From assembly GCF_006345805.1 (NCBI RefSeq), contig NC_042997.1:93434001-93498000 (forward strand): a stretch of 64,000 bases of DNA. Reading direction: 5' to 3'. This document shows positions 269-55,723 of this stretch, in pieces. The DNA is from Octopus sinensis. Taxonomy: Eukaryota. Position numbers: made by a program. Numbering within the stretch: position 1 is the stretch's first letter; every line of letters starts with the position of its first letter.

Positions 269-1707
269 CATAAAGTTGGTGAGCTGGTAGAACTGCTAGC
301 ATGTCAGGCAAAATGCTTAGTGGTATTTTGCCCATCTCTATGTTTTGAGTTCAAATTCTGCCAGGGTCAACTTTGCCTTTCATCCTTTTGGAGTCAATAA
401 ATTAAGTACCAGTTATGTACTGGGGAATTGTAATCGACTTACCCCCTCCCCCACAATTTCAGGCCTTGTGCTTTAGTAGAAAGGATTATTATTATTATTA
501 TAAGAGCATTGGGTGACAAGGAAGAATAATTTCAACACTAATAAATAATTACACTAAACTTCTGTCAGAGAGAGAAAGAGACAAACAGCTAAACAGGCAG
601 ACAGACAGACAGATATATGCTCATGCATACTCAAATATAAATACATATACACATATAATGTGTTAAAAACATGTGAATTTGCTTCTTTTTAGAGCTGGAT
701 TAAATTACCTGAGACTTATGCAACAAATCGATATTTCCAAACTGCCAACACATTTGCGAGACATGGTTCTAAGAGAGAGGGTAAAAGATTATGTTATGTT
801 TAATCTCCTTGACTTCATCACCCAGAATATACAGGCATTAGGTAAGACTTCACAGCTACCTACTTTTTCATGTCAAACTTTGTATACAATAATATAATTT
901 CTTTTGACTAGACAAAACACTAATATTTTACTTTATGATGGACTTCTTGTATGAATAGCTGTTTGATACCTTTTAAGGTGGTACATTTAAAGAACATTAA
1001 AGAACCCTGTATTGTGGTACATTTAAAGAACATTTGCTAGAATATTTGTGCTTAAATATAACATGACAAAAAGAAAGCAAAATGTTGAAATTAACATAAT
1101 TAACTTAGAATTAAGAAGAGATAAAAATAAATGCTGTCAGTCATATGGCAATTTTACCATTTTGCCAATTCAACCCATCTCAAAGGCTTTACAATTATTT
1201 TCTTACTGAGATAAACAAGCTAAAATATGCTAAACATTTAGTCTAGCACCTTCATTTTCTCTTCAATATATTGTTGATGTTTCACTAACACACAGGCCAC
1301 AAATTTACAGAGGAATAGAATAAGACTATGTGACATACATTGTTGCATCAAGAAAGTTAATAACATGAGTGATATGAGTTAATGTCAAGTTTACAGTAGT
1401 AAACAAGGAGTTTAGATGCTCTATGACAAGTAAATTCTTGATACAAACCTTAAAAACAGTTGTTATTGTTGTATCAAATTATATTAAAAGTCACAATTAG
1501 AAAAGAAATTTGTATTTCTGAATTATTTTTTACAATAGGTGCAGGAGTGACTGTGTGGTAAGTAGCTTGCTTACGAACCACATGGTTCTGGGTTCAATCC
1601 AACTGCATGGCACCTTGGGCAAGTGTCTTCTACTATAGCCTCGGGCTGACCAAAGTCTTGTAAGTGGATTTGGTAGATGGAAACTGAAAGAGGCCCGTTG
1701 TATATAT

Positions 1708-1759
<52 letters not shown>

Positions 1760-52900: not shown

Positions 52901-55723
52901 CAAGAAAGGATTTCAAATTCTATTCCCTCTTGATTACATTTTCTGAATTCTATTATTTTAATTTCAAGATGTTCTATCTTTTGAAGAAATTCTTCAGTAA
53001 CATTGAAAATAATGCTTAATATTTGTAGCTGTATTCCGAAACTTCTTGAAATCACCGGATGTTGTACGAGACTATTTGATGAATAACTTAAACTTACCAC
53101 ATGAAATCTCAGATGCACTGATTAATTCCACAGTTTCTCTGGCTCAGGTTAGTTATTCTTCAGACTACCATTATTGGGCATGACTTTCAGCTGTTGGCTA
53201 TTTGCTTTTCCTTTCAGAAATTCTCCAATATTAGATATTGGTTTCAAATTTTGGTACAAGGCCAGCAGGTTCAGGGACAGGGATAAGTTGATTATATCAG
53301 CTCCAGTGCTCAACAACTACTTATTTTATCAACCCCAAAACGATGAAAGGCAAAATCAGCCTCAGCAGAATTTGATCTCAGAATGTATTTAATCTTTAAA
53401 TATGGATAACTTTTTTTACTGAAGTGTTTTAATTTTTTTCAAACTACTTTTGCTCTTTTAATGAATTTGTAAGAATTTTAAAGTAACTAAATTTCATTGG
53501 ACATGAAAAAAGTAGTCGAATTTTACTTTCATTTTTAATTCTAAGTTAAGATTGAATGAAAAATGTTGGATTGAAACAAGCTGAAAAAATAAGTATATAT
53601 ATATATTCTTCATAAGATCTTAGTTTACACATGTAATTGTGCATTCTCTTTCAGTTCATTAATTTCCGAAGCAACTCTGTCAAAGAACTAATGTGCAAGA
53701 ACATCAGCCGCATTATAACTTTGTCAAATAACACCAATGTTACATACCAGGAAATTAGTAATCATTTATGTCATCTGAACACTAAAACTATCTACAACCT
53801 AACACAACTCATCATGGAACAATTAAATATTGGTGAATTTGTTAAACAGGTATGGCCAAAAGCATTTCTGATTTTGAGAAACATTTTATTTAACTACAAT
53901 AAATGCAAACAGCAAATTATATAAAATTTTGTAGAAATTCAGTTATACTTCTAATGTCTTCATTAATGAGATAAATTGCATACTATGAACATGGAAACTA
54001 AATATATTGAACATTATATAGTAAGCTTAAACATGGTTTATAAATTAAATGACATAAATATATGAATATATGAAATGTATGCAAATACTAAAAAATAAAT
54101 AACAATGAGATTTAAAACGAACAGGTGAAGCTCATTTTTTTACATTTGTTTTTAATCTAATCAATATACTGAGATAACAATCAAATCTTATGCTCTAAAA
54201 ATGTTGAAGTACTAAAGAGTAACAACCAGTTTTCATATGGTAGGCTGCTGATCTCACTTTTTCAGTGTTCTCCCTGTTGTTATGCCAGGTTACATGCCAC
54301 TGCCTTGATGTAGTGCTGGTATTTCTGACAAAAATATAACATGATGAATGATATTATAAAGCATTTATAACAAATTTTACTGACTAGATTGCAAGTAAGC
54401 AAATTAAAACCTTAATTACCATTTCATCAATTTTGCCAAGCATATGGTATATACCTAGCCAACAGAATACATGCAAAATATGTGTGAATGTGTGTGTGGT
54501 GTGTGAGTGAATTTTCTTTAATCTTGAAATTTAAAACAGACCAAATCTATCAGAATGAAATGACATGTCATCAAAAATATTATATTTTAATAATATAGAA
54601 GGGGTAATGTTCTTTTTCAGTATGTCTTACTACGTGCTTCAACTTTGCTGAAATCAACCAACATAACAGTACCAATTGCAAAAGAAACATTTTCACAAAT
54701 GTCCAGGACCAGTGCACTTGTAAGAGGAGTCAGAACAGCATTCAACGATAATGAAATATATAAAGTATTCTCTAACTTTGACTCATCTGAAGGCGGTATG
54801 TTTATGTTATTTCCTGGGGGATGGGAATTTTTTAATGCTTAAAAATAAAATGGTTTCATACATCATCATAAGGTCTCAGAATGTAGGAGTAGATGTATTA
54901 TTGATTGAATAAACCCAGTACAAGATTGCTACATATCTCACTTGGGAGGAATGGAAACCAATATCAGCTAAGCAGTTTTTACTTAGGATACAACTAAATA
55001 TGAAATAGAAAAAATTTTAGTGTATTCTGTCACCAAAACAAGCATAGCTAGTTATGATCCAATCCCCCATACTGTAAACAATGCTTCTTCTGTAAGTAGT
55101 AGCAGAAGCAAGTACTCTGAAAGTTTTTTATATCTGTTTTGAGATTTTTTAAGTTCAACTCCTGATAATTTTTTTTTTATTTATCTAGTTTCAGCTCACA
55201 AGCTGTGGCCATGCTGGGGCAAGGCATTAATTTTTTTTCTATTTTTTTAGGGTCCGTAAAATAACTAGCTAGCATAAAAATAACTAGATCCAGTTTACAG
55301 TTTGTAGCATACTGGGTCAATTGAGTTGCTTGTACATCCTTCTTCAAATACGTATTTAAAATGCTCTTCATAAACCCAAACTTTCTTAAAATAACTATCA
55401 TTGTGATCTCATCTCGCTCTTTCTTAAAGATCTGAGCAAGCTTAAAGAGCTTGTACCTCTTATGTGTGGTCGAAATGCTTCTCTTATGTTGGATGCCGAG
55501 GGTGGCCTCAGCATTTTCAGCTCAGCAAATGAAATCAAAGGAAAAGACGGACTCAGTAAATCACAACGGCGTGAATACAACTCTCTACCAAGTAAGTAAC
55601 ACTAGCTAATAATATCAGGTAATGTAAAACACTATTTAAATACAAAGAAAAATACCACAGCCAAGAATGAATTTCAGAATTGTGTGTGCATTTATATATG
55701 CATGTGCGTGCATGCGTGTGTGT

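Follow-up and report, generated by a model that had tools for sequence, protein, structure and literature searches.

Tandem duplication of phase-symmetric exon sets is a general mechanism by which proteins are built. In ABCA1, ABCA4 and ABCA7, the extracellular domain ECD1 spans about 600 aa, and ABCA4 residues 138-271 form a flexible ECD1 lid with no cryo-EM density assigned and a function given as unknown, according to a recent preprint (bioRxiv 10.64898/2026.06.25.734683). A 2026 review attributes abnormally large ECDs to ABCA2, ABCA12 and, most of all, ABCA13 (PMC13161189), and the human ABCA13 ectodomain is, going by the title of Prades 2002, encoded partly by a 4.8-kb exon. Another source describes this ABCA13 region as being without homology to known proteins or conserved domains (PMC7948424); more generally, according to these sources, the extra sequence of the oversized ectodomains of ABCA13, ABCA12 and ABCA2 stands without a described architecture (PMC7948424, PMC13161189). 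No description of a repeat like the one reported here was found for ABCA ectodomains in the literature covered, which was mostly that of non-subscription journals.

The window, namely the entire 64-kb stretch of Octopus sinensis DNA analysed here, probably carries such a repeat. We read it, with a probability of roughly 0.8, as the inner part of a single plus-strand gene of the ABCA1/4/7 type, lying wholly within ECD1 and containing a tandemly copied exon block. This block consists of 32 plus-strand cassette exons between 693 and 53849 (4876 nt, 1625 aa), and six further exons (33-38) bring the coding sequence in the window to 5868 nt, or about 1956 aa. The first-pass annotation had put at least 1900 aa of ECD1 here, encoded by 37 exons totalling 5720 nt, and the present model bears this out. 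The exons are listed below with their entry and exit phases, which define four classes (A, 0>2; B, 2>1; C, 1>0; D, 0>0). Each was found by both the seeded and the unseeded runs of the exon finder unless another basis is given.

693..841, plus strand: cassette 1 (partial), B exon, 149 nt, 2>1
2883..3022, plus strand: cassette 1, C exon, 140 nt, 1>0
5306..5521, plus strand: cassette 1, D exon, 216 nt, 0>0, Cys14/Cys43; both runs, BLASTP match to 9755-9964
5750..5964, plus strand: cassette 2, A exon, 215 nt, 0>2
6829..6986, plus strand: cassette 2, B exon, 158 nt, 2>1
8268..8404, plus strand: cassette 2, C exon, 137 nt, 1>0
9755..9964, plus strand: cassette 2, D exon, 210 nt, 0>0, Cys14/Cys42; both runs, BLASTP match to 5306-5521
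11272..11471, plus strand: cassette 3, A exon, 200 nt, 0>2; seeded run, the unseeded run preferring a donor at 11460
13528..13670, plus strand: cassette 3, B exon, 143 nt, 2>1, donor GTAAGT, acceptor uncertain; gap-directed search
15282..15409, plus strand: cassette 3, C exon, 128 nt, 1>0
16396..16590, plus strand: cassette 3, D exon, 195 nt, 0>0, Cys19/Cys45; seeded run
18975..19171, plus strand: cassette 4, A exon, 197 nt, 0>2
19681..19811, plus strand: cassette 4, B exon, 131 nt, 2>1
21325..21422, plus strand: cassette 4, C exon, 98 nt, 1>0; both runs, no D exon in a gap search downstream
23861..24042, plus strand: cassette 5, A exon, 182 nt, 0>2
25403..25464, plus strand: cassette 5, B exon, 62 nt, 2>1, preceded by TTTTTCAG and followed by GTAAGT; both runs
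27525..27628, plus strand: cassette 5, C exon, 104 nt, 1>0
29534..29737, plus strand: cassette 5, D exon, 204 nt, 0>0, Cys15/Cys47; gap-directed search, BLASTP match to 5306-5521
29934..30094, plus strand: cassette 6, A exon, 161 nt, 0>2
31145..31230, plus strand: cassette 6, B exon, 86 nt, 2>1
32449..32573, plus strand: cassette 6, C exon, 125 nt, 1>0; both runs, no D exon in a gap search downstream
34488..34609, plus strand: cassette 7, A exon, 122 nt, 0>2
35537..35667, plus strand: cassette 7, B exon, 131 nt, 2>1
36863..36957, plus strand: cassette 7, C exon, 95 nt, 1>0
38752..38936, plus strand: cassette 8, X exon, 185 nt, 0>2, Cys at 15 and 45; unseeded run and gap-directed search
40487..40614, plus strand: cassette 8, B exon, 128 nt, 2>1
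45191..45315, plus strand: cassette 8, C exon, 125 nt, 1>0
46592..46786, plus strand: cassette 8, D exon, 195 nt, 0>0, Cys16/Cys42
48278..48483, plus strand: cassette 9, A exon, 206 nt, 0>2
51933..52066, plus strand: cassette 9, B exon, 134 nt, 2>1, with a rival model; gap-directed search
53029..53147, plus strand: cassette 9, C exon, 119 nt, 1>0
53655..53849, plus strand: cassette 9, D exon, 195 nt, 0>0, Cys14/Cys39
54621..54795, plus strand: exon 33, 175 nt, 0>1, where the rhythm stops
55430..55591, plus strand: exon 34, 162 nt, 1>1
56634..56773, plus strand: exon 35, 140 nt, 1>0; match to ABCA1/ABCA4/ABCA7, length and phases of ABCA4 exon 9
57930..58046, plus strand: exon 36, 117 nt, 0>0; both runs, length and phases of ABCA4 exon 10
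59935..60184, plus strand: exon 37, 250 nt, 0>1; both runs, no PDB match
63761..63908, plus strand: exon 38, 148 nt, 1>2; unseeded run, weak ABCA4/ABCA1 match

Read in order, exons 1-32 fall into nine groups, BCD, ABCD, ABCD, ABC, ABCD, ABC, ABC, XBCD and ABCD, with a D exon in six of the nine units and none in the other three. This grouping, already drawn in the first-pass annotation, was reproduced exactly by an independent dynamic-programming exon finder that is blind to the rhythm, being supplied, when unseeded, with generic splice matrices, self-trained codon scores and phase compatibility only. On the plus strand the unseeded finder returned a 37-exon chain with a score of 213, as against 16 exons (67.9) on the reverse complement and three (53) on the reversed sequence. 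Exact recovery of the final cassette exons amounted to 27/32 in the unseeded run, 28/32 in the seeded run and 29/32 in both combined; the remaining three (13528-13670, 29534-29737 and 51933-52066) came from a gap-directed search. One might suspect that the rhythm is an artefact of picking exons among chance open frames in AT-rich DNA, given that the self-trained codon score barely separates the strands (137 vs 136 high-scoring segments) and that these three exons emerged only when the search was directed to the needed phase. We consider this extremely unlikely, because the rhythm-blind finder, besides its 27 exact exons, yields lengths of 2 mod 3 in 25 of its 37 plus-strand exons but in only 3 of 16 on the minus strand, and because the cysteine pairs, length classes and alignments between D exons described below played no part in exon choice. 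The probability that all 32 frames are open by chance is about 1e-41.

The lengths of the cassette exons modulo 3 are 2 in 26 of the 32, 0 in six and 1 in none, the last having a chance of (2/3)^32 = 2.3e-6, to which the placement of all six symmetric exons in phase 0 adds a further factor of 1.4e-3. In contrast, three of the six exons downstream (33-38) have lengths of 1 mod 3 (Fisher p 0.0024). The four phase classes also differ in exon length (A 122-215, B 62-158, C 95-140, D 195-216 nt; Kruskal-Wallis p 3e-4). Such a rhythm has tandem copying of a phase-0-ended cassette as its only reasonable source, and there is good support for this copying having taken place within a single ABCA gene.

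The splice sites look genuine. All 32 exons in the cassettes have AG..GT borders, none of their 17 split codons forms a stop, and all 38 exons are free of repeated DNA; the largest measures 250 nt and the median intron 1350 nt. The donor GTAAGT is used by 14 of the 38 exons, as opposed to 0.6% of the window's 3773 GT sites, and pyrimidine content at acceptors is 0.77 against a background of 0.50, an enrichment that is partly circular as splice scores helped to choose the exons. Pfam searches with 10 exon peptides returned no credible family (best E 0.015, under the family cut-offs), nor did those with 10 other long ORFs from both strands.

Three details of the model are uncertain. The acceptor of 13528-13670 may lie at 13528, 13531 or 13567, and 51933-52066 has a rival in the pair 50828-50934 and 51989-52066. 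Exon X (38752-38936) combines A-like phases (0>2) with a D-like content of two cysteines at a spacing of 30, indicating that phase class and sequence class do not always coincide; it was taken in place of 37734-37804 plus 38590-38751, which have weak sites. Other candidates were dropped: 12641-12711 or 12641-12894, which is of low complexity and covered by repeats; 27199-27348, which extends into a microsatellite and can be left out without upsetting the phase; and 3724-3807, whose splice sites are poor.

Sequence similarity between the units is almost gone, in keeping with the earlier claim that DNA similarity between cassettes had been lost while the phase rhythm persisted. The clearest remnants are among the D exons: BLASTP aligns 5306-5521 with 9755-9964 (31% identity over 61 aa, E 2e-7) and with 29534-29737 (E 5e-4), both cysteines being in register in each alignment. 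Across all classes there is a weak excess of in-register similarity, with mean end-to-end alignment z-scores of 0.71 for 108 same-class pairs and 0.26 for 357 cross-class pairs (label permutation p 0.0008); this excess holds after trimming of exon ends or removal of the best pair or of class D (p 0.0004-0.005). Other procedures detected little or nothing. Local Smith-Waterman z-scores within and between classes gave p 0.094, and BLASTP of 53029-53147 against 45191-45315 gave no alignment. The leave-one-out HMM tests, 28 in all, reached an E of 0.42 at best, with ranks between 3 and 670 in a set of about 3400 ORFs; class HMMs built from the exon alignments retrieved their training exons and no new members, while hhalign between half-split classes gave probabilities of 0-2% for 24 same-class and 0-1% for 72 cross-class comparisons. 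A search of the ESM Atlas with the D exon at 5306 returned unnamed clusters only, with low recognition. The first-pass annotation had named a lack of significant self-similarity among cassettes as what would refute it; the profile methods (leave-one-out HMM, hhalign) come close to such a result, whereas the D exons and the permutation test do not.

A further common feature is provided by cysteines. Each of the seven D and X exons has exactly two, the first at residue 14-19 and the second 25-32 residues on, such that these exons hold 14 cysteines in 466 aa, whereas the other 1142 aa have 2 (p 1.7e-6). In five of the seven, a sequon follows 1-4 residues past the first cysteine, and N-glycosylation sequons number 40 overall, compared with 19.1 +/- 3.8 in shuffled sequences (p 5e-4). 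Together, the phases, class lengths, D-exon cysteine pairs, two D-D alignments and in-register excess uphold the proposal that the cassette was multiplied in tandem.

The assignment of the region to an ABCA-type ECD1, also first suggested from inspection, is supported by exon 35. Its ORF (56633-56821) matches ABCA1 354-402 in the PDB with E 1.8e-6, as well as ABCA4 368-411 (E 3e-3) and ABCA7 267-314 (E 0.08), and ABCA proteins account for 11 of its 11 matches. For the ORF of exon 38 (63751-63909), all nine matches are to ABCA4 562-586 or ABCA1 547-570, which are weak (E 0.7-1) and collinear. Searched singly against the PDB, exons 33, 34, 36 and 37 gave no ABCA match, their few matches being at chance level. 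Exons 35 and 36 are identical in length (140 and 117 nt) and phases (1>0 and 0>0) to human ABCA4 exons 9 and 10, which correspond to c.1100-1239 and c.1240-1356 (PMC7544654). This correspondence extends upstream into the last cassette: from cassette 9 onward, B, C, D, exons 33 and 34 combined, 35 and 36 measure 134, 119, 195, 337, 140 and 117 nt, as against 140, 128, 198, 331, 140 and 117 nt for ABCA4 exons 4, 5, 6, 7 and 8 combined, 9 and 10 (PMC7544654), with the phases 2>1, 1>0, 0>0, 0>1, 1>0 and 0>0 common to both.

These observations bear on whether two genes are present, one for a secreted or membrane repeat protein that ends upstream of about 54 kb and the other, an ABCA gene, lying beyond it. 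Significant ABCA similarity does begin only at 56.6 kb, and no cassette exon matches ABCA proteins significantly. We nevertheless judge two genes very unlikely, as the chain is phase-compatible throughout and has no terminal stop, the gap between exons 32 and 33 is only 771 nt, and the window yielded no well-spliced exon bearing a TM1-like hydrophobic segment; moreover, the parallel with ABCA4 exons 4-10 locates cassette 9 within the ABCA gene. Hydropathy over 19-residue windows stays below 1.6 in every exon, the four candidates for a TM-like exon within the 64 kb proving to be intron read-through or low complexity, and neither an NBD nor a TMD was detected within the window. The two NBDs and the membrane segments TM1 and TM2-6 would lie beyond its ends, TM1 upstream if the first-pass annotation is right.

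The copied part of ECD1 may be the lid. ABCA4 exons 4-6 encode aa 101-256, overlapping the lid residues 138-271, and the parallel of cassette 9 in length and phase to these exons is what favours the suggestion in the first-pass annotation that the tunnel/lid segment was multiplied; on the other side, no cassette has a significant sequence or fold match to ABCA1, ABCA4 or ABCA7. Against the PDB, a D-exon profile gave no matches at E up to 10, a C-exon profile placed unrelated proteins first (MxiC, E 0.003) and reached ABCA4 153-190 only at E 1.5, and the last D and C exons gave no ABCA match. AF2 models of single cassette 9 exons, made from the exon alignments, are all-helical with four helices for D (pLDDT 63.6) and consist of two long helices for A (pLDDT 77.8). 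Foldseek found no ABCA match in the PDB for the former (best E 2.9) and nothing at E up to 10 for the latter, which says little either way, given how short the models are and their low to moderate confidence. The identity of the copied piece with the tunnel/lid is only indirectly supported, by exon structure.

The cassettes might instead serve as alternatives, through skipping or mutually exclusive use, in which case ECD1 would be of normal size but have a variable lid. Because A+B+C and D are each frame-neutral (0>0), the frame survives the skipping of any whole unit and transcripts could carry only one or a few of them, and the single ABCA4 copy has its counterpart in the last unit by itself. 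Yet mutually replacing exons are usually similar in length and sequence, whereas here A exons range over 122-215 nt and B exons over 62-158 nt, within-class lengths vary up to 2.5-fold and inter-unit similarity is near noise. The absence of D from three of the nine units and the ordinary, strong splice sites of all 32 cassette exons also tell against alternative use, and giant ECD1 proteins do exist, as ABCA13 runs above 460 kDa on blots (PMC7948424). We regard such use as improbable and favour one gene whose cassettes were copied in tandem and are read in series.

The block probably arose when a set consisting of A (0>2), B (2>1), C (1>0) and often a following D (0>0), lying upstream of the conserved ECD1, was copied in tandem to give the eight full units and one partial unit of the window. 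Unequal crossover between introns would have added about 110-215 residues each time, and such crossovers keep the frame because the block begins and ends in phase 0. The copies are probably old, their DNA similarity and most of their protein similarity having decayed. The retention of open frames, splice sites, exon sizes, the D-exon cysteine pair and the N-glycosylation excess suggests, from sequence features, that they are expressed coding sequence under selection. The last unit may be the original one, the counterpart of ABCA4 exons 4-6, which supply the helices leading to and forming the apical lid. If so, the protein would carry about nine glycosylated helical modules in a chain, which would project from the top of the ectodomain with at least its D sub-modules stapled by disulfides. 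It might serve as an extended arm for interaction or for holding lipid; the nearest precedent for such an arm is ABCA13, whose long N-terminal region is needed for localisation and function. The continuous lipid conduit or rod proposed in the first-pass annotation, and an origin independent of the vertebrate ABCA13 expansion, are possible further features of the locus.

The locus presents one concrete route to a giant ECD, by serial copying of a frame-neutral exon set aligned by gene structure with the lid; it offers a structural hypothesis of repeated helical lid modules, and its 0>2, 2>1, 1>0 rhythm is a simple signature to look for in other genomes. A bolder generalization equates the copied unit with the ECD1 lid module (ABCA4 about 100-256), so that a giant ABCA ectodomain would consist of lid modules chained on a normal tunnel and base. 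We think this rather unlikely, but were it true, the "domain-less" N-terminal region of ABCA13 and ABCA12 might conceal the same repeat, with the small-exon array as the ancestral gene structure, and a helical, cavity-forming, disulfide-stapled chain might keep or transfer lipids at a distance from the membrane.

Several known systems invite comparison with the locus. It resembles ABCA1, ABCA4 and ABCA7 in its mid-ECD1 sequence and in exon lengths back to exon 4, and possibly also near ABCA4 562-586, where there is a weak collinear match. It departs from them in having about nine copies of what corresponds to ABCA4 exons 3/4-6 and an ECD1 of at least 1956 aa, with both domain ends beyond the window, as against the approximately 600 aa given for those proteins; the ectodomain is thus about three times the usual ABCA length. 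Like ABCA13, and also ABCA12 and ABCA2, it would have an extremely long segment separating TM1 from the conserved ECD1, but the multi-kilobase exon reported for human ABCA13 is replaced here by a regular array of small exons, none above 250 nt. Clusters of mutually exclusive exons are of near-equal length and clear similarity, unlike the cassettes. The closest general parallel is the duplication of phase-symmetric exon sets, with which the locus has in common a frame-neutral unit, adjoining copies and conserved intron phases. Here, though, in place of the usual single symmetric exon, the unit comprises three non-symmetric exons that are neutral only as a whole and whose sequences have diverged almost beyond recognition.

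The coding content of the window is best explained by an exon cassette that was duplicated in tandem inside a single ABCA gene, a reading to which we would give roughly four chances in five. Near the 3' end of the window, plus-strand open frames resembled the first extracellular (luminal) domain (ECD1) of ABCA transporters. A PDB search confirmed this: the ORF at 56633-56821 aligned with ABCA1 354-402 (E 1.8e-6), ABCA4 368-411 (E 3e-3), and ABCA7 267-314 (E 0.08), all 11 of its matches being ABCA proteins. The nine matches of the ORF at 63751-63909 were all to ABCA4 562-586 or ABCA1 547-570; they are weak (E 0.7-1), and their order relative to those of the first ORF is that expected for an ABCA protein. 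Pfam offered no family covering the ABCA-like ORF or exon parts and matched none of ten further long ORFs from both strands.

The gene was reconstructed with a dynamic-programming exon chainer that combines generic donor and acceptor matrices, a self-trained codon score, and a penalty for repeated DNA; it requires the phases of adjoining exons to agree, and periodicity is not encoded in it. Run unseeded, it returned 37 exons on the plus strand (score 213), as against 16 on the reverse complement (67.9) and 3 on the reversed sequence (53). By the self-trained codon score alone, the strands are indistinct (137 versus 136 segments). The final chain holds 38 exons (5868 nt, ~1956 aa), of which exons 1-32 (693-53849, plus strand; 4876 nt, 1625 aa) form the cassettes, and the remainder are as follows:

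54621-54795, plus strand, exon 33
55430-55591, plus strand, exon 34
56634-56773, plus strand, exon 35 (140 nt, phases 1>0)
57930-58046, plus strand, exon 36 (117 nt, phases 0>0)
59935-60184, plus strand, exon 37 (250 nt, 83 aa)
63761-63908, plus strand, exon 38

The final cassette exons were recovered exactly in 27 of 32 cases by the unseeded run, in 28 by a seeded run, and in 29 by their union; the other three (13528-13670, 29534-29737, and 51933-52066) came from a search of the gaps for exons of the required phases. The last of these replaces two weaker pieces, the chainer having favored 50828-50934 plus 51989-52066 over the single exon. The open frame at 50828-50934 (plus strand) is of low complexity, rich in Asp/Asn, and flanked by weak splice sites; it might represent an alternative insert or one specific to the lineage. 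All 32 cassette exons are bordered by AG and GT, and none of their 17 split codons is a stop. Across the 38 exons, 14 have GTAAGT donors (versus 0.6% among the window's 3773 GT sites), pyrimidine content at acceptors is 0.77 versus 0.50, and the acceptor -3 base is C or T in 33, an enrichment that is partly circular because splice scores helped choose the exons. TM1, the rest of ECD1, the TMDs, and the NBDs fall outside the window.

The window (64 kb, 33% G+C, zero N) also contains ~15.6 kb of interspersed repeats, whose families reach 14 copies and which overlap none of the 38 exons. Families ~170-460 bp in length, the largest numbering 13-14 copies, lie in introns only and have no tRNA or Rfam match; indeed, no tRNA genes or Rfam matches were found anywhere in the window. 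Examples are:

269-496, 4445-4618, 14313-14489, 32693-32879, 46896-47352, and 58555-58983, intronic interspersed repeats

An intronic 138-aa open frame (52177-52593, minus strand) gives the impression of a decayed transposase C-terminus and had no Pfam match at E up to 0.01. In self-comparison, 684 bp at 61921-62604 match one other site in the window, and ORFs 62131-62295 and 62232-62498, on opposite strands, have similar readings, as an inverted duplication would produce. Long microsatellites and low-complexity tracts (39190-39300, 55690-55800, 60480-60870, and 22700-23650), comprising CA/TG, CT-rich, and purine-rich runs, give rise, on either strand, to long open frames that are spurious, such as one of 268 aa at 22703-23509 (minus strand).

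The cassette exons fall into four classes by their flanking intron phases: A (0>2), B (2>1), C (1>0), and D (0>0). With X denoting the exon at 38752-38936, the nine units read BCD, ABCD, ABCD, ABC, ABCD, ABC, ABC, XBCD, and ABCD, the D exon being missing from three. The first-pass annotation had described an ABCA exon-cassette rhythm with just this grouping, and the independently built chain reproduces its phase order without change. None of the 32 lengths is 1 mod 3 (26 are 2 mod 3 and the other six 0 mod 3), for which the chance is (2/3)^32 = 2.3e-6; that all six symmetric exons are in phase 0 adds a factor of 1.4e-3. In contrast, lengths of 1 mod 3 occur three times among the six exons 33-38 (Fisher p 0.0024). 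Length also depends on class (Kruskal-Wallis p 3e-4), with ranges of 122-215 nt for A, 62-158 for B, 95-140 for C, and 195-216 for D. In two units, the intron leading from D to the following A measures just 228 nt (5522-5749) or 196 nt (29738-29933), against a median of 1350 nt. D and A may thus be part of one duplication unit, which might run as ABCD, BCDA, or in another such order.

Relatedness of the units was assessed exon by exon, on single exons rather than joined cassettes. In 28 leave-one-out tests, class HMMs failed to retrieve the withheld exon at a significant level (best E 0.42; ranks 3 to 670 among ~3400 ORFs), and hhalign between half-split classes gave probabilities of 0-2%. Local Smith-Waterman z-scores within and between classes differed at p 0.094, and BLASTP of the C exons starting at 53029 and 45191 returned no alignment. 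End-to-end alignment z-scores averaged 0.71 for 108 same-class pairs versus 0.26 for 357 cross-class pairs (label permutation p 0.0008), an excess robust to trimming three residues from the ends, dropping the best pair, or dropping class D (p 0.0004-0.005). The D exon starting at 5306 matches those at 9755 (31% identity over 61 residues, E 2e-7) and 29534 (E 5e-4), with both cysteines in register in each alignment; in the neighboring units 1 and 2, clear similarity is confined to the D exon, the A, B, and C partners being without it. As judged from these comparisons, the residual similarity between units is faint but in register, which bears out the earlier contention that the phase periodicity has outlasted sequence similarity.

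Exactly two cysteines occur in each of the six D exons and in exon X, the first at residue 14-19 and the second 25-32 residues on, and the remaining 25 cassette exons have two altogether (14 in 466 aa versus 2 in 1142 aa, p 1.7e-6). In five of these seven exons, a glycosylation sequon lies 1-4 residues past the first cysteine. Exon X (plus strand) combines a strong acceptor with a GTAAGT donor; it occupies an A slot by its 0>2 phases, yet carries a D-type pair (Cys15/Cys45, spacing 30), and its alignment scores against the D exons were not significant. Cassette 8 thus seems to lack an A-like exon and to have two that are D-like.

N-X-S/T sequons are twice as frequent as in shuffled exons (40 versus 19.1 +/- 3.8, p 5e-4), and no exon contains a TM-like hydrophobic stretch (top 19-residue hydropathy 1.19). 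The sequon excess is consistent with a domain that is extracellular or luminal and glycosylated. AlphaFold2 predicted four helices from the D-exon alignment, with modest confidence (pLDDT 63.6), and two long helices from the A-exon alignment (pLDDT 77.8); the inputs being isolated exon fragments with alignments of 6-7 rows, these models indicate a helical tendency and little more. Foldseek found nothing in PDB for either.

On the relationship to canonical ECD1, gene structure is more informative than the sequence searches. The variant tables in a review of human ABCA4 (PMC7544654), from which we took exon borders, place exon 3 at c.161-302, exon 4 at c.303-442, exon 5 at c.443-570 (aa 148-190), exon 6 at c.571-768 (aa 191-256), exon 7 at c.769-858, exon 8 at c.859-1099, exon 9 at c.1100-1239, and exon 10 at c.1240-1356. 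On these borders, window exon 35, which aligns to ABCA4 368-411, equals ABCA4 exon 9 exactly (140 nt, 1>0), as does exon 36 ABCA4 exon 10 (117 nt, 0>0); exons 33 and 34 together span 337 nt (0>1) versus 331 nt for ABCA4 exons 7 and 8. Further upstream, the D, C, and B exons of the last cassette measure 195 nt (0>0), 119 nt (1>0), and 134 nt (2>1) versus 198, 128, and 140 nt for ABCA4 exons 6, 5, and 4. We infer from these lengths and phases that duplication started from the last cassette, which would correspond to ABCA4 residues ~100-256; the eight upstream units would then be its duplicates. Exon 37 sits between exons matching ABCA1/ABCA4, matched nothing in PDB at an E limit of 1, and is 250 nt long versus 198 nt for the next ABCA4 exon; it seems to be a diverged part of ECD1.

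A 2026 preprint on ABCA4 (10.64898/2026.06.25.734683) identifies residues 138-271 as the apical lid of ECD1, unresolved in cryo-EM owing to flexibility and modeled by AlphaFold 3 as several helices surrounding a cavity. A flexible apical element is a plausible site tolerant of insertions. The proposal that the multiplied unit is the tunnel/lid segment is plausible but indirectly supported: exon lengths and phases parallel ABCA4, whereas no searched cassette exon or class profile significantly matched ABCA1, ABCA4, or ABCA7. For the class C profile, ABCA4 153-190 came up at no better than E 1.5, ranking below unrelated proteins. This weak match lies within ABCA4 exon 5, whose phases are those of class C. 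The first-pass annotation further conjectured that the array might form a very long lipid conduit and that the expansion might be independent of ABCA13.

Abnormally large ECDs are attributed to ABCA2, ABCA12, and especially ABCA13 in a 2026 review, which describes the ABCA13 structure as largely unexplored (PMC13161189). The long N-terminal region of ABCA13, according to a functional study of that protein, lacks homology to known proteins and conserved domains and is required for vesicular localization and cholesterol internalization (PMC7948424). The literature searched, which was thin on subscription journals, yielded no published account of such a repeat. A 4.8-kb exon, reportedly described by Prades in 2002, encodes part of the human ABCA13 ectodomain, whereas the largest exon of the octopus gene in the window is 250 nt.
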